From a virus (lineage: Duplodnaviria; Heunggongvirae; Uroviricota; Caudoviricetes), in IMG/VR virus record IMGVR_UViG_3300001282_000006: 43,871 nucleotides of DNA. The stretch is one strand, 5' to 3'. The first letter of the stretch is position 1; each line of letters opens with the position of its first letter. Below the pieces are notes generated by a model, which did no database searches, had not been told where the DNA came from, and saw only the letters and a program-made list of their open reading frames with translations. The translations under genes and the position numbers were made by a program. Shown here one piece after another: positions 4,991 through 32,474 of this stretch.

Positions 4991-5775
4991 AAGTAGATAA
5001 AATTATATTTTCTTCTGATGATTCAAATTATTTGAATTTTTGGAAGATAAACTCAGAAATAACTTTAAAGAAGCTAGGAATAACTCCTGTTTTATTTCAC
5101 ATAACAGATGAGGAAAGTGATTTTTATCAAGATGAATTTGGAATAGTTAAGAAAATTAAAAAAATACCAAATCACTCAACAGCTATACAATCACAAATTA
5201 TTAGAATGTATGCTACAAAATTTTTTCCAGATGAAATATGTCTAATAAATGACATAGATATGTTTTTATTTGACTTGGAATATCTAAATTCATGTATATC
5301 TGATAAAAATCATGATGATATTGTTATATTAACTAGTGATGCCTATGATAGTAATAGACCAGAATGTATAGGTGAATATTCTGGACCTGATAGATATCCT
5401 ATGTGTTATGTTGTAGCTAAAGGAAAAACGTTTAATAAAATATTAAACACTGATATTAACTTTGAGGAATATGTAAACAATGTACAATCTTGTGTTTCTT
5501 TATACGGAGGCGATGAAATTTATTTTGGAAGAATGGTTAATAATCAAACTCATACAAAAGTTCACAAAATAAAAAGAGGGATTTGCTCAAATTTTTATAC
5601 ACCCAGAAGAATTGAAAAATATATGTTTAGCAATTATACAAATAAAACTTTTATTTTTAATCTAAATGGAGTTTTTGATATTAAAAATTTCATAGATTGT
5701 CATTGTCCTTTTCCAGAAAATGAAACTCAAAGATTATTAATTGATAAAATTAAAAATATGATATTAAATGATTAA
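4987..5775 (+). CDS. Putative glycosyltransferase
   Basis: 262 aa, LINDIDMF DxD-like motif, operon context. Confidence 0.5.
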   Translation: MKVDKIIFSSDDSNYLNFWKINSEITLKKLGITPVLFHITDEESDFYQDEFGIVKKIKKIPNHSTAIQSQIIRMYATKFFPDEICLINDIDMFLFDLEYLNSCISDKNHDDIVILTSDAYDSNRPECIGEYSGPDRYPMCYVVAKGKTFNKILNTDINFEEYVNNVQSCVSLYGGDEIYFGRMVNNQTHTKVHKIKRGICSNFYTPRRIEKYMFSNYTNKTFIFNLNGVFDIKNFIDCHCPFPENETQRLLIDKIKNMILND

Positions 5776-6352
5776 ATCTTTAATTGGTAATGGTGGTCAC
5801 GCAAGAGAAGTTCAAGCTCAAATGGGTATTGAACTTTTTCGATTTGTAAGTGATGAATATTGGAAAGAAGGTGATAGTAAACTTTTACCCCTTTCTAAAT
5901 TCAATCCAGATAAGTATGTTGTCATGATAGCCGTTGCTGATTCTAAAGATAGAGAAGACATTGTAAAACAACTACCAGTAAATACTCAATATTTTAATTT
6001 TATACACCCAACTGCTCAATTAATGAGCAATGATATTACTATAGATGAAGGTTCATTTATAGGTGCTAATTCTATTATTACTTGTAATGTTAAGATTGGT
6101 AAACACGCCATATTAAATAGAGCTAATCACATTGGACACGATTGTAGAATAGGTGATTACTTTAGTGCGATGCCAGGATCTATTGTTTCTGGAAATGTTA
6201 ACTTAGGTAATAAAGTTTATTTAGGAACCAATTCATCAATTAGAGAAAAGATTACTATTTGTGATAATGTGACCATTGGATTAAATACTGGTATAGTCAA
6301 AGATATTAATATATCTGGAACTTATATTGGACAAAATACAAGAAAGTTATAA
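5768..6352 (+). CDS. Sugar O/N-acetyltransferase, PglD/NeuD family
   Basis: IGNGGHAREV, FIHPTA, hexapeptide repeats, IGHDC. Confidence 0.85.
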   Translation: MIKSLIGNGGHAREVQAQMGIELFRFVSDEYWKEGDSKLLPLSKFNPDKYVVMIAVADSKDREDIVKQLPVNTQYFNFIHPTAQLMSNDITIDEGSFIGANSIITCNVKIGKHAILNRANHIGHDCRIGDYFSAMPGSIVSGNVNLGNKVYLGTNSSIREKITICDNVTIGLNTGIVKDINISGTYIGQNTRKL

Positions 6353-8168: not shown

Positions 8169-8245
8169 ATATTTTTATTATTTTTGTAAAAAAATATCAA
8201 AAGAGATAAAAACTTTTTAATATATACACATACAATAAAATATAT

Positions 8246-8317
8246 TGCGGGGTAGAGCAGGGGTAGCTCGCTAGGCTCATAACCTAGAGGTCGGAGGTTC
8301 GAATCCTTCCCCCGCTA
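8246..8317 (+). tRNA. tRNA-fMet (CAT)
   Basis: Cloverleaf; anticodon arm ctagg-ctCATaa-cctag; mismatched 1:72 pair. Confidence 0.9.
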
Positions 8318-8335
8318 CTAAAAAAATAAAAAATA

Positions 8336-8367
8336 TTTGGTGAATTGAAATTGTCACCGTATATTTG
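8336..8367 (+). promoter_or_regulatory. Bacteroidota-type primary-sigma promoter for leader 1
   Basis: TTTG (8336) - 20 nt - TATATTTG (8360). Confidence 0.75.
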
Positions 8368-8400
8368 TAAAAGAATTAAAAACTATAAAAAACTAAAACA

Positions 8401-8478
8401 ATGACAACAATTACTAACATAGCGTATTATTATGAGGGAGAGCGTGGCTCAAACGTCAGACTAATGTCTATGTCGTAA
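8401..8478 (+). CDS. Leader peptide 1, MTTITNIAYYYEGERGSNVRLMSMS (Tyr/Glu sensor)
   Basis: 25-codon ORF between promoter and terminator; TAT TAT TAT GAG GGA GAG; GTCAGACT (8455-8462) complementary to the terminator 5' arm. Confidence 0.8.
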   Translation: MTTITNIAYYYEGERGSNVRLMSMS

Positions 8479-8500
8479 TGGAATCATTATGATATTAACT

Positions 8501-8532
8501 AACCCAGTCTGACTTATCAGACTGGGTTTTTT
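8501..8532 (+). terminator. Intrinsic terminator of attenuator 1
   Basis: aacccagtctga-ctta-tcagactgggtt followed by a T run. Confidence 0.9.
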
Positions 8533-8547
8533 GTTTTAAATTAAATT

Positions 8548-8638
8548 GGGAGTGTAACGTCAGCGGCATGTAAGCCGCCCCTCGTAAATATATGGCGTAT
8601 GGCTTGAGGTAACTAGTGTTCGAATCCTGGTACTCCCA
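8548..8638 (+). ncRNA. Atypical tRNA-like gene (no D arm, GTA in a 6-nt loop)
   Basis: Acceptor gggagtg/tactccc, GTTCGAATC T loop, hairpin gcggc-atGTAa-gccgc, long extra arm. Confidence 0.55.
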
Positions 8639-8644
8639 CAAAAT

Positions 8645-8716
8645 GGTCCTGTCGACTAATGGTCAGGTCAACACCCTTTCAAGGTGTAGATGCGGGTTCG
8701 ATCCCCGTCGGGACTA
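8645..8716 (+). tRNA. tRNA-Glu (TTC)
   Basis: Cloverleaf; acacc-ctTTCaa-ggtgt. Confidence 0.92.
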
Positions 8717-8723
8717 CAAATAT

Positions 8724-8806
8724 GGGAATGATGTGACACAGGTAGTCACGCTAGTCTGTAAAACTAGTGCCTTCGGGCGTTGCGAGTTCGAGTCTCGCCA
8801 TTCCCA
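8724..8806 (+). tRNA. tRNA-Tyr (GTA)
   Basis: ctagt-ctGTAaa-actag; long variable arm. Confidence 0.92.
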
Positions 8807-8824
8807 CAAAAAAATTAACAAATG

Positions 8825-8855
8825 TTTGGATAATTAAAAAATATCCTTATCTTTG
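8825..8855 (+). promoter_or_regulatory. Bacteroidota-type promoter for the second Glu/Tyr pair
   Basis: TTTG (8825) ... TATCTTTG (8848). Confidence 0.75.
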
Positions 8856-8871
8856 TAAAAGAATAAAAAAT

Positions 8872-8943
8872 GGTCCGTTAGTGAAGCGGTTAACACGCTG
8901 CCCTTTCACGGCAGAGGCACGGGTTCGAATCCCGTACGGACTA
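8872..8943 (+). tRNA. tRNA-Glu (TTC)
   Basis: ctgcc-ctTTCac-ggcag. Confidence 0.93.
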
Positions 8944-8949
8944 CAATAT

Positions 8950-9032
8950 TGGAAGGTGGGTGAGTGGTTAAAACCGACAGACTGTAAATCTGTTCTCGCA
9001 AGAGTACGGGGGTTCGAATCCCTCCCTTCCAA
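8950..9032 (+). tRNA. tRNA-Tyr (GTA)
   Basis: acaga-ctGTAaa-tctgt; long variable arm. Confidence 0.93.
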
Positions 9033-9098
9033 CAAAAATTAAAAATAACTAAAAAGGGAGTTAAAACTTTTTATATATACATTAATATAATTAAAACG

Positions 9099-9179
9099 AT
9101 GAAAAATTTAAATAACATATCAACAGCGAAAATAGGAGGCGGCGCGGGAGCGAATGTCACTGGCTGGATTATGTTGTAA
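9099..9179 (+). CDS. Leader peptide 2, MKNLNNISTAKIGGGAGANVTGWIML (Ile/Gly/Ala sensor)
   Basis: ATA GGA GGC GGC GCG GGA GCG run; TGGCTGGATT (9161-9170) can pair with the terminator 5' arm. Confidence 0.8.
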   Translation: MKNLNNISTAKIGGGAGANVTGWIML

Positions 9180-9202
9180 TTTTTTATCAAAAGAATTAAA
9201 CG

Positions 9203-9234
9203 AAACCCAGTCAATCAAATGACTGGGTTTTTTT
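9203..9234 (+). terminator. Intrinsic terminator of attenuator 2
   Basis: aaacccagtca-atcaaa-tgactgggttt followed by a T run. Confidence 0.9.
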
Positions 9235-9243
9235 ATTTTATAT

Positions 9244-9333
9244 TGGCGAATAGCAGTGGTGTCTTATACACACTATACCTGTAGCGGTAACTTGAGATAG
9301 TATCAAACGTGGGTTCGAATCCCACTTCGCCAA
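9244..9333 (+). tRNA. Atypical tRNA-Ile-like gene (TAT), no canonical D arm
   Basis: Acceptor tggcgaa/ttcgcca; perfect T arm gtggg-ttcgaat-cccac; ggtgt-ctTATac-acact. Confidence 0.6.
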
Positions 9334-9341
9334 CAAAAATT

Positions 9342-9413
9342 GCGGGTATCGTATAACGGTTATTACTCCACACTTCCAATGTGGAGATCTCGGTTCGATT
9401 CCGGGTACCCGCT
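9342..9413 (+). tRNA. tRNA-Gly (TCC)
   Basis: ccaca-ctTCCaa-tgtgg; U73. Confidence 0.93.
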
Positions 9414-9423
9414 CAAAACATAT

Positions 9424-9499
9424 GGGGTTACATGTTCCAAGGCTTAGGCGAGTTTGATTTGCGATCAGACTGTGGTGGGTTCGATTCTCACTAGCTCCA
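9424..9499 (+). tRNA. tRNA-Ala (TGC)
   Basis: tttga-ttTGCga-tcaga; G3.U70 alanine identity pair. Confidence 0.85.
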
Positions 9500-9826
9500 C
9501 AAAAAATAAAAAACGAATATGATAGTATTCAAAAACATAATTGATAATAAAACCTATATAATCTATAAGGCACCAAATGGTAATTGTTTAGCAATTCCAT
9601 TTAGACACGATGGTCCTTCTATCCCTAAATGTGATATGAAAGAATTTGTGGTTGTAAGCTCTGAAGATGGTAGATTAGATGGGTTTTTATAATAGTAAGA
9701 TATGGAAAAGAAGATAGTATTAACAGGAGAGTTTGAGTCAAGTAAAAAGAATTTGGGAAGAGACATAAGTAAAAATGGATTGGATAAATTTATTAAAAGA
9801 CTTATAAAGAAGAAAAAGTAAAATAA

Positions 9827-9898
9827 GCGAAAGTCGTATAGTGGCTATTATATCGCCTTGCCAAGGCGAGGACGGGAGTTCGATTCTCCTCTTTCGCT
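9827..9898 (+). tRNA. tRNA-Gly (GCC)
   Basis: tcgcc-ttGCCaa-ggcga. Confidence 0.93.
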
Positions 9899-9917
9899 CA
9901 AAAAATAATTATTATGG

Positions 9918-10286
9918 ATGAAAATATGTCCTAATTGTGAAAAGGTTGTTACCAAAAGAAATAACAAATACTGCGATGCTAAGTGTCAAGTAGAATTTGT
10001 AAATAAAGGTATCTATGAGAACATAGAAAATGGAGACACAACTCTTTATCATAAGACATATAAAAGACATCTTATCATCAAATATGGTGAAAAATGTATG
10101 GAATGTGGTTGGGATAAAGTAAATCCATCAACAGGTAAAGTTCCAATACAATTAGAACATATAGATGGTAACTCGGATAATAATTCTTTAGATAATTTGA
10201 AATTACTTTGTCCAAATTGTCATTCACTAACACCAACATATGGTGCTTTGAATAAAGGAAATGGACGAAAGAATAGAAAAAGATAA
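9918..10286 (+). mobile_element. Free-standing HNH homing-endonuclease-like gene inside a tRNA cluster
   Basis: CPNC..YCDAKC zinc finger, CMECG, LEHIDGNSDNNSLDNLKLLCPNCH. Confidence 0.85.
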
Positions 10287-10288
10287 AT

Positions 10289-10326
10289 GCCGGATGATCC
10301 ACCGTTGAATCACGGTGCCGGCTCCA
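10289..10326 (+). ncRNA. 38-nt tRNA minihelix-like element ending in TCCA
   Basis: gccgg-atgatc-caccg-ttgaatca-cggtg-ccggc-TCCA; abuts tRNA-Ala. Confidence 0.45.
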
Positions 10327-10400
10327 GGGGAATTAGCTCATTTGGCTAGAGCGTTTGAATGGCATTCAAAAGGTGACGAGTTCGATCCTCGTATTCTCCA
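10327..10400 (+). tRNA. tRNA-Ala (GGC)
   Basis: tttga-atGGCat-tcaaa; G3.U70. Confidence 0.92.
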
Positions 10401-10406
10401 CAAATA

Positions 10407-10436
10407 AAAAAGTCCAGTTATTTAACTGGACTTTTT
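10407..10436. terminator. Bidirectional intrinsic terminator
   Basis: aaaaagtccagtta-tt-taactggactttttt between convergent units. Confidence 0.85.
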
Positions 10437-10479
10437 TATCTTAAATCAAAGACTATAATTTCTGATTCTTTTTTTAATT

Positions 10480-18843: not shown

Positions 18844-20427
18844 ATGCCAAATCCAATAAAGTACAGTGTTTCCGCACAATCAAAGGCTTTGAAAAGAGGA
18901 AACTTTTTCATTGGAACAGGTGATGATCCAAAGGGAGATACTCCAATAAGTGATTATTGGAATGGCATAACTCCTCCGGTTGGTGGTTATACAATCTATC
19001 TTAATAAAGCTAGTCAAGGACCGAGTATATATGTTGCTGCCAATGATTCAGAGTTAATTAGTTTAACAAATAGAATTGCTAGTACTAGTTATACAACTGT
19101 TGGAGAATGTTTATCTTGGTTTTCTACACAAACAGATAAAATGGTTTTGAATAAAGACTATGAGCCTATTGTAACCGATGGATTAGCTTTTAGTTTAGAT
19201 GCTGGATTTGTATCTTCATATCCAAAAAGTGGAACAACTTGGTATGATATAAGTGGAAGTAATAATGTAACATTAGTAAATGGCTCGACTTTTAATAGTT
19301 CAAATGGAGGCAGTATTATGTTTGATGGTGTTGATGATATGGCTACAGGCTCAACAAACATATCATATACTAACACTCAAACTTGGATGGCGTGGATTAA
19401 AAGAACATCATCAGGCAATGTCTTCAATATGTTTATGGGTAGATTTTTACCATATTTTTCATTTAGATCAACTGGGCTTTTTCACTTCTCAAATCAAGTC
19501 GGTGGTACACAAGTAAATTTATATTCACCATTAACCTACTTAGATAATGTTTGGTATTTTACATGTTTCACAACTGAATATAATAACCCAAATACCACAA
19601 TGAAAATGTATATTAACGGATCTTTAGTTAGTAGTGGTTCATTTCCCGGAACTCAAAATAATCTCAGTTATACTTACACAGTTGGTGATGGTAGGAATAC
19701 ATCAACTTGGTACCCGTTTAATGGTTATGTTTCAATGGTGTCGGTATATGATAGAACTTTATCTGCGTCTGAAATTCTTCAAAACTATTATAAAGGACCA
19801 ATAGTAACTAGTGGTTTGGTTTTTGCCGTTGACGCAGGTAATATCGTCTCATATGAACCAGGTTCTATAACTGCTTATGATTTAACTGGTAATGTTACCT
19901 CAGGTACATTAAATAATGGTACATACGGAAGCGGAAACTGGTTTATTTTTGATGGATCAAACGATGAAATTTCATTTCCTCATGATGCTGATTATAAAAA
20001 TCAATCTTTATCTGTGGACTTTTGGGTTAATTTAGATTCTGAAAGTTCAGGTAGACATGTAATGTTCACTACTTGGTACGGATTCACTGTTGAGGTAAAT
20101 AATCCAGGTGGAAGTTTATCTTGGGGTCTTAATGGTTTACCTGGACAATATATGACAGCAGGTACTATTACATATGGAAGTACTACTCATATAGCATGTA
20201 CATATAATACAACAACAAATGTACAAAATATTTACATAAATGGTTCTCTAGCTGGAACACAGATAGTTGATGGTACAATAAATTATTCAAGTGATAATTT
20301 ATATTTTAGTGGTTCCTGGGATAGAACAAAAGGTAAAATGGGATCAATGAAGATTTATAACAAGGAACTTTCGTCATCAGAAGTAAAACAAAATTATCAA
20401 GCTCAATCCTCAAGATTTGGATTATAA
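18844..20427 (+). CDS. Fibre/decoration protein with two LamG (concanavalin A-like) domains
   Basis: GL.FSLDAG..SSYP.SGTTW.DISG; FDG.DD; MYINGSL; YDR.LS..EI.QNY, present twice. Confidence 0.8.
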   Translation: MPNPIKYSVSAQSKALKRGNFFIGTGDDPKGDTPISDYWNGITPPVGGYTIYLNKASQGPSIYVAANDSELISLTNRIASTSYTTVGECLSWFSTQTDKMVLNKDYEPIVTDGLAFSLDAGFVSSYPKSGTTWYDISGSNNVTLVNGSTFNSSNGGSIMFDGVDDMATGSTNISYTNTQTWMAWIKRTSSGNVFNMFMGRFLPYFSFRSTGLFHFSNQVGGTQVNLYSPLTYLDNVWYFTCFTTEYNNPNTTMKMYINGSLVSSGSFPGTQNNLSYTYTVGDGRNTSTWYPFNGYVSMVSVYDRTLSASEILQNYYKGPIVTSGLVFAVDAGNIVSYEPGSITAYDLTGNVTSGTLNNGTYGSGNWFIFDGSNDEISFPHDADYKNQSLSVDFWVNLDSESSGRHVMFTTWYGFTVEVNNPGGSLSWGLNGLPGQYMTAGTITYGSTTHIACTYNTTTNVQNIYINGSLAGTQIVDGTINYSSDNLYFSGSWDRTKGKMGSMKIYNKELSSSEVKQNYQAQSSRFGL

Positions 20428-20703: not shown

Positions 20704-21738
20704 ATGCCAAATCCAATAAAATATAATTTATCTGTACAATCAAAAGCTTTGAAAAGAGGAAACTTTTTCATTGGAACAGGTGATGATCCAAAGGGAAATA
20801 CTCCAACAAGTGATTATTGGAATGGCATAACTCCTCCGGTTGGTGGTTATACAATTTATCTTAATAAAGCCAGTCAAGGTCCTAGTATCTATGTTGCTGC
20901 TAACGATTCGGAGTTAATTAGCTTAACAAATAGAATTGCTAGTACTACTTATACAACTGTTGGGGAATGTTTATCTTGGTTTTTAACACAAACCGATAAA
21001 ATGGTTTTGAATAGAGATTATGAAGGTATTAAAACAGATGGTTTAGTATTAAATTTAGATGCTGGATTTGTTTCTTCTTATCCAAAAAATGGAACAACTT
21101 GGTATGATTTAAGTGGAAATGAAAATAATGCCTCACTAGTTAACGGACTTCAATTCAATAATACTAATAGTGGTGAAATTTATATGGACGGAGGTGATGA
21201 GTACATACGAATTCCTCCATCCTCAAATTTACAATCTTATTTTTCAAATAATAGTTTTACCATCACTCTAATAGTAAAATCAGATAATGTTGTTTATCCA
21301 AGAAGTAGATGTCCTATATATGTCAATTCTACTGTAACAAGTGCGTCACAAAAAGGATGGTCAGCTGGTCATGGATCATCAACAACCAGTATAGAAATTA
21401 GGTCTTGTGATGGAACTAATCTTTCAAACGGATTTATTAGTCATTCAGTAGCTGAATCAACAGTTTACATGAGAACATTTACAATTGATAGAACCAGTGG
21501 TGTTTTAACAAAATATTATGTAAATGGATCTTATGTCGGTCAACATAATGCGACTAATGTTACTGGTTCTATTTATGATGGAACTAATACTGATTTTATA
21601 ACAGGCTTTGTTTTTGGTTATGTATGGGGTTGGAGGTTTATAGGTGGAATATATAATATTATGGTATATAACAGATTGTTATCAGAAACTGAAATACTTC
21701 AGAACTTTAATGCTCAGAAATCAAAATTTGGATTATAA
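20704..21738 (+). CDS. LamG-domain fibre/decoration protein, paralog of 18844
   Basis: About 125-aa N terminus nearly identical to 18844; single LamG domain. Confidence 0.8.
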   Translation: MPNPIKYNLSVQSKALKRGNFFIGTGDDPKGNTPTSDYWNGITPPVGGYTIYLNKASQGPSIYVAANDSELISLTNRIASTTYTTVGECLSWFLTQTDKMVLNRDYEGIKTDGLVLNLDAGFVSSYPKNGTTWYDLSGNENNASLVNGLQFNNTNSGEIYMDGGDEYIRIPPSSNLQSYFSNNSFTITLIVKSDNVVYPRSRCPIYVNSTVTSASQKGWSAGHGSSTTSIEIRSCDGTNLSNGFISHSVAESTVYMRTFTIDRTSGVLTKYYVNGSYVGQHNATNVTGSIYDGTNTDFITGFVFGYVWGWRFIGGIYNIMVYNRLLSETEILQNFNAQKSKFGL

Positions 21739-21840: not shown

Positions 21841-21911
21841 AAATTAAAACTTTTATCTATATTTGTATAAAATAAGTCAAAAGGAACAAAAAACTTTTAA
21901 TATATACTATA
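21841..21911 (+). promoter_or_regulatory. Dual-promoter cassette (TATATTTG plus TAATATATA) upstream of leader 5
   Basis: Near-identical to 31739-31810. Confidence 0.75.
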
Positions 21912-22022
21912 ATGAAAACAATGAATTTAAATATGAACATGAATACACTGACAGTGGTGAATAATACGTTATGTATTAGACCGTCTGAGGGCTTCGTCAT
22001 ATCTAAACGATTTGTTAGTTAA
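21912..22022 (+). CDS. Leader peptide 5, MKTMNLNMNMNTLTVVNNTLCIRPSEGFVISKRFVS
   Basis: First 23 codons use only M,K,T,N,L,V,C,I,R; GTCTGAGGG (21983-21991) is the exact complement of the terminator arm CCCTCAGAC. Confidence 0.85.
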   Translation: MKTMNLNMNMNTLTVVNNTLCIRPSEGFVISKRFVS

Positions 22023-22050
22023 TATAACAAATTTTAATAAAGAATACTCG

Positions 22051-22083
22051 AAACCCTCAGACACAAAATCTGAGGGTTTTTTT
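22051..22083 (+). terminator. Intrinsic terminator of attenuator 5
   Basis: aaaccctcaga-cacaaaa-tctgagggttt followed by a T run. Confidence 0.9.
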
Positions 22084-24873: not shown

Positions 24874-26346
24874 ATGAAAAACATCGTAACAAGAATCGCA
24901 CCCTCACCAACTGGACCTTTTGCTCATATTGGTAATGTAAGAACACTATTATATAACTACTTTCTTGCTAAGAAAAGTGGTGGTAAATTCTTTGTGAGAT
25001 TGGAAGACACCGACAGAGACCGTTATACGGCTTCGTTTCTAACATATTTCAAAGATATGTGTGATTGGCTTGGTATAGTACCAGATGGTTCTTATTGGAA
25101 CCCAGATCCTTCTATCGGCTCTTTCACTCAATCAACAAGAGATTATTCTGATAAAGTTAAATTTTTATTAGATAACGAATTTGCTTATTATGCTTTTGAT
25201 TCTAAAGATGATTTAGACTTGGCTCATAAAACAATTCCTAACTTCAAATACGATGCTACAACTCGTATGACTATGAAGAACTCATTAACAATGACTAAAT
25301 CGGATGTTGATGCGGCTATTGCTACAGGTAACTATGTTATTCGTTTTGCTGTAACTCCAGATGTTGATGTTGTAATCAACGATGCTATTTTAGGAGATAT
25401 CACAATCAGTACTAATACTTTAGATGATAAAGTTTTGATTAAGTCAAATGGTATTGGTTCTTACCACCTTTGTAATGTTTGTGACGACCACGATATGGGT
25501 GTTACTCACGTTCTTAGAGGTAACGAGTGGGTAAACTCAACTCCTTTCCATGTTATTCTTTACAAGGCTTTTGGTTGGGATGTTCCAACATTCGCTCATC
25601 TACCTTTAATTATGAATCCAGATGGTAAAGGTAAGTTGTCTAAGAGAACTGCTATGAAGTATGGTATTCCAATTGCGCCACTTGGTTACACTGACGAAAA
25701 CGGTGTTTACAATGATGGTTGGAAAGATTTAGGTTTTGACCCAAAAGCATTTATGAACTATCTTGCCTTAATTGGTTGGAATCCAGGTGCTGAAGTTGAA
25801 ATTATGTCTATGGATGATATGATTAACTCATTCTCTTTAGATAGAGTTCACAAGGCTGGGGCTCGTTTCGATATGGATAAAGCAAAGTGGATGAACTCAC
25901 AATATCTTAAATTAACAGACAATAAAGACTTAATGCCTTATGTCCATGTAGTTGATGATAGATACTCTGATGATAAGTTAGATGCTATTGTTTCATTGGC
26001 TAAAGATAGAGCTGACTTCAAAACTGACTTAAACAAAATTGTTAAATTGTTCTTTGATTTACCAACTATCGATGATAGAAGTAAGTTAGATGATAACTAT
26101 ACAAAAGTTATGTCAGACTTCATCAATAAGATTGATACAATCAACTTTGATGATACGAACTCAATCAAAGACACTATCTCAGCAATCTGTAATGATTTAG
26201 GTGTTAAGATGGGTAAAGTAATGCCTGGTTTAAGAATGGCTTTAGTATCTGGTATTGCGGGTCCGGACTTAATGACAACAATGTCAATTTTAGGTAAAGA
26301 CCAAACTAAGTTGAGAATTAACAACTCGATTGTAGTAATGGCTTAA
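24874..26346 (+). CDS. gltX: Glutamate--tRNA ligase
   Basis: RIAPSPTG..HIGN, RLEDTD, THVLRGNEW, FAHLPLI, KLSKR, C-terminal anticodon domain. Confidence 0.95.
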   Translation: MKNIVTRIAPSPTGPFAHIGNVRTLLYNYFLAKKSGGKFFVRLEDTDRDRYTASFLTYFKDMCDWLGIVPDGSYWNPDPSIGSFTQSTRDYSDKVKFLLDNEFAYYAFDSKDDLDLAHKTIPNFKYDATTRMTMKNSLTMTKSDVDAAIATGNYVIRFAVTPDVDVVINDAILGDITISTNTLDDKVLIKSNGIGSYHLCNVCDDHDMGVTHVLRGNEWVNSTPFHVILYKAFGWDVPTFAHLPLIMNPDGKGKLSKRTAMKYGIPIAPLGYTDENGVYNDGWKDLGFDPKAFMNYLALIGWNPGAEVEIMSMDDMINSFSLDRVHKAGARFDMDKAKWMNSQYLKLTDNKDLMPYVHVVDDRYSDDKLDAIVSLAKDRADFKTDLNKIVKLFFDLPTIDDRSKLDDNYTKVMSDFINKIDTINFDDTNSIKDTISAICNDLGVKMGKVMPGLRMALVSGIAGPDLMTTMSILGKDQTKLRINNSIVVMA

Positions 26347-28669: not shown

Positions 28670-28785
28670 AACTTATATATTAAAAAAGTAATTTCAGATA
28701 TTATTTAAATTAATTCTTAATAAATTTGGATATTGTGGATAACCTCCGTATATTTGTATATAAGTAGAAAAAAACTATAGACAAG

Positions 28786-31732: not shown

Positions 31733-31810
31733 TTTGACAAATTAAAACTTTGTTGTATATTTGTATAAAATAAGAACAAAAGGAAGAAATCCTTTTTAAT
31801 ATATACTGAA
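31733..31810 (+). promoter_or_regulatory. Dual-promoter cassette upstream of leader 3
   Basis: TTTG (31733), TATATTTG (31756), TAATATATA (31798). Confidence 0.78.
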
Positions 31811-31909
31811 ATGAAAAACTTAAACTTAAATATCGTTAACCCGCAACCACAAGTTGTAATCGATCAGGATCCTGATACGAAAGGGGCTAACTATGTGGTT
31901 TTAAGTTAA
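31811..31909 (+). CDS. Leader peptide 3, MKNLNLNIVNPQPQVVIDQDPDTKGANYVVLS (Pro/Gln/Asp sensor)
   Basis: CCG CAA CCA CAA ... GAT CAG GAT CCT GAT; GGCTAACT (31885-31892) pairs with AGTTAGTC in the terminator arm. Confidence 0.8.
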   Translation: MKNLNLNIVNPQPQVVIDQDPDTKGANYVVLS

Positions 31910-31933
31910 GAAAATATTTAACTATGAAACATT

Positions 31934-31966
31934 ACCCAGTTAGTCGAAAGATTAACTGGGTTTTTT
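31934..31966 (+). terminator. Intrinsic terminator of attenuator 3
   Basis: acccagttagtc-gaaa-gattaactgggt followed by a T run. Confidence 0.9.
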
Positions 31967-31981
31967 GTTTTTAGTAAAAAA

Positions 31982-32055
31982 CGGGTAGTGACTAAGGTTT
32001 TAAGCACGGGGGCTCTGGAGGCTTCAGTTAGTCGGTTCGATTCCGACCTACCCGA
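31982..32055 (+). tRNA. Atypical tRNA, anticodon CTG (Gln) or TGG (Pro) depending on register
   Basis: Perfect acceptor cgggtag/ctacccg and T arm; anticodon region ggggg-ctctggag-gcttc. Confidence 0.6.
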
Positions 32056-32098
32056 CAAAATACTCTTTAGAGAATAGAGTAAAAGAATTCTCAAATAC

Positions 32099-32360: not shown

Positions 32361-32411
32361 ATGAAAACAACATCACAATACCAACAACAACAAATTAATC
32401 GAACAGATTGA
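32361..32411 (+). CDS. Leader peptide 4, MKTTSQYQQQQINRTD (Gln sensor)
   Basis: Five CAA codons; CAGATTGA (32404-32411) is the exact complement of TCAATCTG in the terminator. Confidence 0.85.
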   Translation: MKTTSQYQQQQINRTD

Positions 32412-32439
32412 TAACGGTATCGTATTGTTAAAACTTTAC

Positions 32440-32474
32440 AAACCCTATTCAATCTGATTGAATAGGGTTTTTTT
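32440..32474 (+). terminator. Intrinsic terminator of attenuator 4
   Basis: aaaccctattcaat-ctg-attgaatagggttt followed by a T run. Confidence 0.9.

Follow-up and report, generated by a model that had tools for sequence, protein, structure and literature searches.

Positions 9099–10400 of a 43,871-nucleotide (nt) stretch of Caudoviricetes DNA (IMG/VR record IMGVR_UViG_3300001282_000006, hereafter the window) probably encode a ribosome-mediated, leader-peptide type of transcription attenuator that gates a transfer RNA (tRNA) operon of a huge uncultured phage. Judged from the sequence and its comparison with relatives, the phage would probably make its Ile, Gly and Ala tRNAs only while ribosomes read the codons for these amino acids slowly. 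The attenuator had been proposed in an earlier note made from the letters of the window, and the follow-up analysis gave it comparative support from the architecture of the units, from permutation tests and from 27 orthologues. The reading appears to be well supported as a system and moderately supported with regard to the RNA switch of this particular unit, which is class D among seven leader classes labelled A to G. The unit comprises a leader open reading frame (ORF), an intrinsic terminator and the tRNA genes behind it.

9062–9080, plus strand: promoter-like motif TAAAACTTTTTATATATAC, located 19 nt ahead of the leader start codon
9099–9179, plus strand: leader ORF of 26 codons followed by TAA (ATG at 9099, TAA at 9177–9179)
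9114–9119, plus strand: AACATA, candidate for region 1, complementary to TATGTT at 9170–9175
9132–9152, plus strand: sensor run ATA GGA GGC GGC GCG GGA GCG (codons 12–18), coding for Ile, Gly and Ala only
9161–9170, plus strand: putative antiterminator (region 2) TGGCTGGATT, pairing with AACCCAGTCA at 9204–9213
9202–9238, plus strand: intrinsic terminator with 5' arm 9202–9213, loop 9214–9219, 3' arm 9220–9231 and a T run (12 bp, 6-nt loop)
9244–9334, plus strand: tRNA-like gene, anticodon undetermined by ARAGORN, Infernal score 34.3 bits
9342–9414, plus strand: tRNA-Gly(UCC)
9424–9500, plus strand: tRNA-Ala(UGC)
9827–9899, plus strand: tRNA-Gly(GCC)
10327–10401, plus strand: tRNA-Ala(GGC), the last gene of the unit

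All coordinates given in the earlier note were confirmed, and so was the tRNA order of Ile(UAU)-type, Gly(UCC), Ala(UGC), Gly(GCC) and Ala(GGC), the first of these being the tRNA-like gene.

The leader codes for the amino acids of the tRNAs that follow it. Seven successive Ile, Gly or Ala codons in the class-D leader have a probability of about 1e-4, corrected for scanning of the ORF. The window carries 32 tRNA genes in four clusters, all on the plus strand, and each of the five terminators that precede tRNAs has a short ORF ending 22–28 nt upstream (5/5). Besides the unit studied, with its leader at 9099–9179, there are four siblings.

8401–8528, plus strand: sibling unit 1, YYYEGE leader, then Glu and Tyr tRNAs; antiterminator 8455–8463, terminator 8501–8528
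21912–22080, plus strand: sibling unit 3, Met/Asn/Leu/Thr/Val/Ile/Arg leader, then 17 tRNAs for those amino acids; antiterminator 21983–21996, terminator 22050–22080
31811–31961, plus strand: sibling unit 4, Pro/Gln/Asp leader, then Pro, Asp and Pro tRNAs; antiterminator 31884–31900, terminator 31934–31961
32361–32470, plus strand: sibling unit 5, QYQQQQ leader, then two Gln tRNAs and a GlnRS gene; antiterminator 32403–32419, overlapping the stop codon, terminator 32440–32470

Against a background of amino-acid frequencies taken from the 24 long ORFs of the window, the actual combination of leaders and tRNA sets ranked first of 120 permutations in the window and first of 5040 in each of three relatives. 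Two of these, the uncultured phages LR745206.1 (634,780 bp) and LR756502.1 (642,428 bp), are the closest public relatives and belong to the 'Mahaphage' clade, whose predicted hosts are Bacteroidetes (PMC7162821); the third is a 385-kb IMG/VR contig. All three contain the five leader classes of the window and two extra ones, a His/Phe/Lys/Trp leader and a Ser/Arg leader, and the tRNAs behind each extra leader are exactly those. Ile(UAU), Gly and Ala tRNAs lie behind the leader in 27/27 distinct class-D orthologues, in the sensors of which the order and number of codons vary and Ile, Ala and Gly are kept; L247, an orthologue found without using the leader sequence, has two Lys codons in addition.

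Other phage lineages partition the amino acids otherwise, and the leader composition still tracks the lineage's own tRNAs. Besides the cultured Cellulophaga phage phi4:1 (L122, KC821632.1), a phage of Bacteroidota, this was observed in three IMG/VR lineages.

L124, 618–716, 3669–3728 and 6983–7078: leaders for Ser/His/Arg, for Gln and for Phe/Cys/Trp/Pro/Tyr
L127, 6112–6171: leader for Trp/Tyr/Pro/Met/Cys
L206, 3893–3970: leader for Leu/Met/Pro/Gln/Ser

Phage phi4:1 has the same layout with two units at about 5125–5250 and 6048–6225. An unannotated 22-codon ORF with eleven successive Gln/Arg/Leu/His/Glu/Pro codons and a terminator is followed by Pro, Glu, Gln, His, Leu, Leu and Arg tRNAs, and the annotated gp075 with its terminator is followed by Ala, Lys, Ile, Gly, Met, Asp, Thr, Val, Arg, Met and Tyr tRNAs. 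A search with a broad tRNA D-arm pattern returned 113 loci in diverse phages; since just 11 of them showed a short ORF with a terminator-to-tRNA unit, a handful of these being convincing, the design is not universal among tRNA-bearing phages.

Codon usage sets the sensor apart from its surroundings. The window contains about 29% G+C overall and 25–36% outside the tRNA blocks, against 76% in the sensor run, so the GC-rich codons do stand out in an AT-rich genome, as the earlier note had remarked. The long ORFs of the window use GGT for 62% and GGC for 7% of Gly, GCT for 69% and GCG for 6% of Ala, ATT for 55% and ATA for 32% of Ile, and AGA for 89% and CGC for none (0/316) of Arg. In the leader at 9099–9179, none of the five Gly codons is GGT (p 0.008) and all three Ala codons are GCG (p 2e-4); four independently found class-D leaders likewise contain GGT in 0/13 Gly codons and GCT in 0/12 Ala codons. 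Ile is encoded by ATA in 10/12 cases in class D, the operons of which carry Ile(UAU), and by ATT in 7/7 cases in class E, the operons of which carry Ile(GAU) (Fisher p 7e-4, computed on orthologues that are not independent). Arg is encoded by CGC or CGT in class B, with Arg(ACG) in the operon, and by AGA in class E, with Arg(UCU). From these sequences, the codon choice is apparently selected and follows the anticodon of the operon where a codon box is split between operons.

The isoacceptor selection suggested in the earlier note thus stood for ATA with Ile(UAU) as opposed to ATT with Ile(GAU) and failed for Ala(GGC) as well as for the preference of GGC over GGT and of GCG over GCA. Because Gly(GCC) reads both GGC and GGT and Ala(UGC) reads both GCG and GCA, isoacceptor choice cannot account for these two preferences. 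The GGCGCGGG block lies in another reading frame in one lineage (L085/L095), which hints at an additional constraint on the RNA level. A small hairpin within the sensor, CGC-GGGA-GCG at 9143–9152 on the plus strand, was obtained from the RNAalifold consensus of alignment A2 and is a possible pause hairpin. It is absent in L247, whose sensor run has no GC-rich block and consists of ATA, GCA/GCG and GGC/GGG with two interspersed Lys codons (AAA), again without GGT or GCT. Codon-level and RNA-level constraints both seem to act on the sensor.

The terminator at 9202–9238 folds at −17.2 kcal/mol and begins 22 nt past the leader stop codon, and its stem is separated from the first tRNA-like gene by 13 nt. 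Since this leaves no space for a promoter before 9244, the tRNAs would be made only via read-through of the terminator; the candidate explanation that the terminator ends an upstream operon and a fresh promoter serves the tRNAs was ruled out on the same ground. A terminator scan of 9231–10406 found no further terminator within the operon. The folding energy of 9161–9170 with 9204–9213, a check proposed in the earlier note, was −10.6 kcal/mol by RNAduplex with a 7-bp core, or −11.5 kcal/mol when one loop base was included. The duplex contains the one G·U pair and the one mismatch (A/C) that had been described. The antiterminator would occupy the loop-proximal half of the terminator 5' arm, where the hairpin would presumably have to nucleate.

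The specificity of this pairing was assessed for all units together. Within each genome, the 3' part of every leader was compared with the 5' arm and loop of every terminator, and the true leader-terminator pairing ranked first of 120, of 5040 and of 5040 permutations; in the fourth genome, it was second of 5040. Support was no more than moderate with the 5' arm alone and became clearer once the loop bases were included, which take part in the pairing of several antiterminators. In one class-C lineage (L029), the terminator changed from CCCAGTCTGA/TCAGACTGGG to CCCAATCTGA/TCAGATTGGG and the antiterminator from GTCAGAC to GTCAGAT, a three-way compensatory change that supports the proposed pairing of the antiterminator with the terminator 5' arm; the class-C comparison loci had been fetched for another reason and were sampled without bias. 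Within class D, the TGGCTG core is kept in the 27 distinct orthologues in two reading frames, including L247, which was not selected by pattern. The stop codon falls inside the TGGCTG motif (GGC TGA) or at most 18 nt past its start, with the frame-shifted L085 lineage as the exception (33 nt), and a 31-nt ribosome footprint at that position therefore covers TGGCTG.

Several observations weigh against an attenuator, and most of them concern the class-D switch. Taken alone, the class-D antiterminator is not above chance (duplex z −1.2, with 45/500 shuffles as good), which makes it the weakest of the five, as had been claimed. At equilibrium, the terminator outweighs it, with −17.2 kcal/mol compared with about −11 kcal/mol. 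The 2:3 helix of the trp attenuator is similarly strong, at about −12 kcal/mol, and its 3:4 helix has about −20 kcal/mol. All proposed class-D pairs are invariant, and neither RNAalifold nor pair counting revealed covariation; this invariance arises largely because 22/27 orthologues were ascertained by a pattern that fixed GGCGCGGG, TGGCTG and CCCAGTCA. The class-E leaders have their stop codon 23 nt beyond the antiterminator, so masking by a terminating ribosome is not valid for every class. On the codon side, the match that the earlier note had seen held for four of the five tRNAs and broke down for Ala(GGC), for which the leader contains no GCC or GCT. In addition, the N-terminal half of the leader uses Lys, Asn, Leu, Ser and Thr codons that the operon does not match, and AGT is frequent in the class A and B leaders of the relatives, behind which ARAGORN found no Ser(GCU) tRNA.

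The weakness of the class-D antiterminator and the lack of covariation in this class would also fit a terminator that is merely a constitutive, leaky insulator between tRNA operons, with an ORF that has no effect on read-through and a codon match of other origin, such as a small ORF under the codon bias of a tRNA-rich neighbourhood. This explanation is unlikely, considering that each leader agrees in its amino acids with the operon behind it, in every genome and across different partitions, that each leader holds a copy of the 3' arm of its own terminator, and that the stop codon stays within the ribosome footprint of TGGCTG.

An attenuator of this kind requires a translated leader. The ATG and the open frame are preserved in the 27 distinct class-D orthologues, and the indels between ATG and sensor in alignment A2 are multiples of three (3, 6 and 12 nt), except for a 5-nt gap in the frame-shifted L085 lineage. 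The class-D leader has no Shine-Dalgarno sequence and carries A at −3 and −6, a context that agrees with initiation in Bacteroidetes (PMC6847099). The N-terminus MKNLNNIS is conserved, and the part past the sensor shows no conservation as a peptide. Related contigs contain ordinary phage genes whose starts resemble the opening codons of the leader. A search that took the class-C leader start as its anchor was abandoned as a way to leaders, returning mostly ordinary 68-amino-acid phage genes that start with MNTTTNI; such genes opening with class-C leader codons were seen in the IMG/VR contigs L123 and L129–L135. The shared opening codons suggest a preferred translation-initiation region common to this phage group. 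It is extremely improbable that a functional small peptide is the purpose of the ORF and that the terminator does no more than close its gene. The conserved MKNLNNIS would suit such a product, but these N-terminal codons also open ordinary phage genes and hence resemble a favoured region for initiation; the C-terminal half varies in reading frame and end point while its nucleotides are conserved, and there is no separate promoter for the tRNAs past the terminator.

To represent the nascent RNA, folding was modelled on the transcript as it is prior to emergence of the 3' arm. In 26 orthologues, the mean number of antiterminator pairs was 9.0 when a ribosome occupied the sensor, 0.06 when it occupied the stop codon and 8.0 on ribosome-free RNA, and the corresponding values for the window sequence were 8.3, 0 and 4.65. 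The earlier note had allowed that the antiterminator might be too weak to compete; in the model, it was predicted to be the dominant fold ahead of the 3' arm when a ribosome sits on the sensor. Along with the retention of TGGCTG and the position of the stop codon, the model speaks for a genuine class-D switch in spite of the weak duplex.

From these observations we infer leader translation, ribosome stalling, the antitermination switch and its physiological trigger. Transcription would begin at or upstream of the motif at 9062–9080, and a ribosome would translate the 26-codon leader. When tRNAs for ATA, GGA/GGG, GGC and GCG/GCA are scarce, the ribosome would stall on 9132–9152 and leave TGGCTGG (from 9161) free to pair with CCAGTCA, the loop-proximal half of the emerging terminator 5' arm; hairpin nucleation would be blocked, and the polymerase would enter the Ile-type, Gly and Ala tRNA genes. 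When the codons are read fast, the ribosome would reach the stop codon at 9177 with its footprint over 9161–9170, the terminator would form and the tRNAs would not be transcribed. In the absence of translation, pairing of AACATA (9114) with TATGTT (9170) may favour termination. This helix is paired in the minimum-free-energy fold of the full leader and complementary in 89% of alignment cells; it is short, AT-rich and invariant, without covariation. The net effect would be a negative feedback on decoding capacity, by which the tRNA block is topped up once its pool has been depleted by host shut-off, codon demand or tRNA-cleaving defences.

The ORF and the codon match are well supported and the RNA switch of the class-D unit is less certain, which leaves some room for leader translation acting by another route, such as protection of the precursor against Rho or an RNase, or guidance of RNase P/E in processing the first tRNA. 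This route is quite unlikely, because 13 nt ahead of the tRNA there is a conserved canonical hairpin with a T run, and the leader-terminator complementarity is specific for the group and includes the compensatory change in class C.

If the unit is a leader-peptide attenuator, it would appear to work like trpL, hisL and ilvL and to be novel in regulating tRNA genes. The enterobacterial attenuators comprise trpL, hisL, pheL, leuL and thrL as well as the multivalent leaders of ilvGMEDA and ilvBN. As in the trpL/hisL type, the phage unit has a short ORF with a regulatory codon run, an intrinsic terminator before the first structural gene, an upstream segment predicted to pair with the terminator 5' arm and a stop codon placed so that a terminating ribosome would cover this segment; as in the ilv leaders, some of the phage leaders would sense several amino acids. 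Unlike in the enterobacterial attenuators, its putative targets are tRNAs rather than biosynthetic enzymes, and the feedback would therefore act on tRNA supply instead of amino-acid supply. It also differs in being phage-encoded with a predicted Bacteroidetes host, in lacking a Shine-Dalgarno sequence and in belonging to a set of five to seven units that cover nearly all amino acids. In the pheST attenuator of E. coli, the pheM leader controls a synthetase and senses the charging of one amino acid. The phage units would share with pheM/pheST the control of a component of the translation apparatus by the reading speed of cognate leader codons, and unit 5 may carry a GlnRS gene behind its Gln tRNAs; they differ in targeting tRNA genes and in reading several amino acids per leader. 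To our knowledge, all described leader-peptide attenuators regulate genes for amino-acid biosynthesis or aminoacyl-tRNA synthetases. No account of such a system emerged from a full-text literature search for tRNA genes controlled by attenuation or a leader peptide, and neither 'attenuat' nor 'leader' occurs in the text of the huge-phage paper on the related genomes (PMC7162821).

T-box riboswitches also let the status of a tRNA select between terminator and antiterminator ahead of translation-related genes. An untranslated, T-box-like RNA, in which triplets resembling codons bind the anticodons of tRNAs from the operon and thereby stabilize the antiterminator, would share this logic, and the UGG in the class-D antiterminator could pair with a CCA end. 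Such an RNA is nevertheless very improbable here. T-boxes bind uncharged tRNA via a single specifier codon and have no ORF, whereas the class-D unit has a conserved ORF with its ATG, open frame and 3-nt indels and with a stop codon tied to the antiterminator; seven to eleven successive codons are unlike single-specifier reading, and the antiterminators of the other classes lack UGG. The T-box family (RF00230) gave no match in the window at the gathering threshold and none at E up to 1 in 8180–10450, and the Trp, His, Leu, Thr and Phe leader families of Rfam gave no covariance-model match. Rfam as a whole, searched over the window at the gathering threshold and over 8180–10450 at E up to 1, returned only tRNAs and chance-level matches to unrelated families.

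Extended to all units, the leader-peptide attenuator suggests with moderate confidence a phage-wide decoding homeostat. The five attenuators of the window, or seven in the relatives, would divide nearly all amino acids among them, and each would switch on its own tRNA block, for Gln perhaps a synthetase as well, when ribosomes slow on the respective codons; host shut-off or host anticodon nucleases could be the triggers. Each leader would also serve as a table of contents, from which the codons decoded by aberrant tRNA-like genes such as 9244–9334 could be predicted.

To the question of why and how phage tRNA genes are regulated, such units, if real, would contribute a direct, codon-resolved feedback circuit on decoding capacity, with a classic attenuation mechanism aimed at the decoders themselves. 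They would provide a testable link between phage tRNA arrays and the depletion of host tRNAs by takeover or anticodon-nuclease defences, a way to infer from the leader what odd phage tRNAs decode, and a natural set of compact decoding-speed sensors for nearly every amino acid. Since phi4:1 has been cultured and has the same design, the proposal is open to tests at the bench.

The promoter-like motif TAAAACTTTTTATATATAC is near-invariant across four divergent genomes (alignment A1). Its core CTTTTWATATATA has five copies in the window, of which four stand ahead of tRNA units.

8214–8226, plus strand: CTTTTWATATATA ahead of tRNA-Met
9067–9079, plus strand: CTTTTWATATATA ahead of the leader studied
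21894–21906, plus strand: CTTTTWATATATA ahead of a second leader
31793–31805, plus strand: CTTTTWATATATA ahead of a third leader
28674–28686, minus strand: CTTTTWATATATA ahead of a protein gene

TAAAACTTTTTATATATAC and CTTTTWATATATA may represent a phage-specific promoter class, separate from the host-type TAnnTTTG boxes, which are present too.

The tRNA array of the unit is interspersed with protein-coding sequences and closed by a second terminator.

9519–9692 and 9704–9822: two small ORFs without Pfam matches
9918–10286: HNH endonuclease gene
10406–10437, plus strand: strong operon-closing terminator, followed by a convergent gene on the minus strand

The small ORFs and the HNH endonuclease gene are probably a mobile insertion into the tRNA array. 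At the head of the array, the tRNA-like gene at 9244–9334 retains an acceptor stem and a T arm, and CUUAUAC may form its anticodon loop; in the relatives, this position is taken by a canonical tRNA-Ile(UAU), and in the nearest metagenome copies the first gene past the leader has the same aberrant ARAGORN call. Aberrant tRNA-like sequences are the first genes past three of the five terminators (8548–8640, 9244–9334 and 31975–32058), with acceptor stem and T arm in place and an unusual middle, and the one at 31975–32058 was called tRNA-Pro(UGG) by ARAGORN at relaxed settings. A tRNA with a CAU anticodon recurs in class-D operons (L001 at 21571–21645 and the metagenome loci L023, L025, L058, L059 and L065) and may be a lysidine-type tRNA-Ile2 reading ATA rather than a Met tRNA.

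In sibling unit 5, the GlnRS gene (32644–34248, with Pfam tRNA-synt_1c and both C-terminal domains) begins 18 nt past the second tRNA-Gln. Because a terminator scan found none between the two, the QYQQQQ attenuator may control GlnRS besides the Gln tRNAs. A GluRS-type gene is also present in the window at 24874–26346. At about 581–582 kb on the minus strand of LR756502.1 (L010), a single tRNA-Arg(UCU) follows a terminator that has no leader ahead of it, its place being taken by the C-terminal end of a longer ORF; this end may belong to an elongation-factor-G-type protein, which it resembles. Finally, the window encodes at 18844–20427 a protein of 527 amino acids with a Laminin_G_3 (concanavalin-like) domain and a weak match to a sialidase N-terminal domain, possibly a receptor-binding or glycan-binding virion protein.

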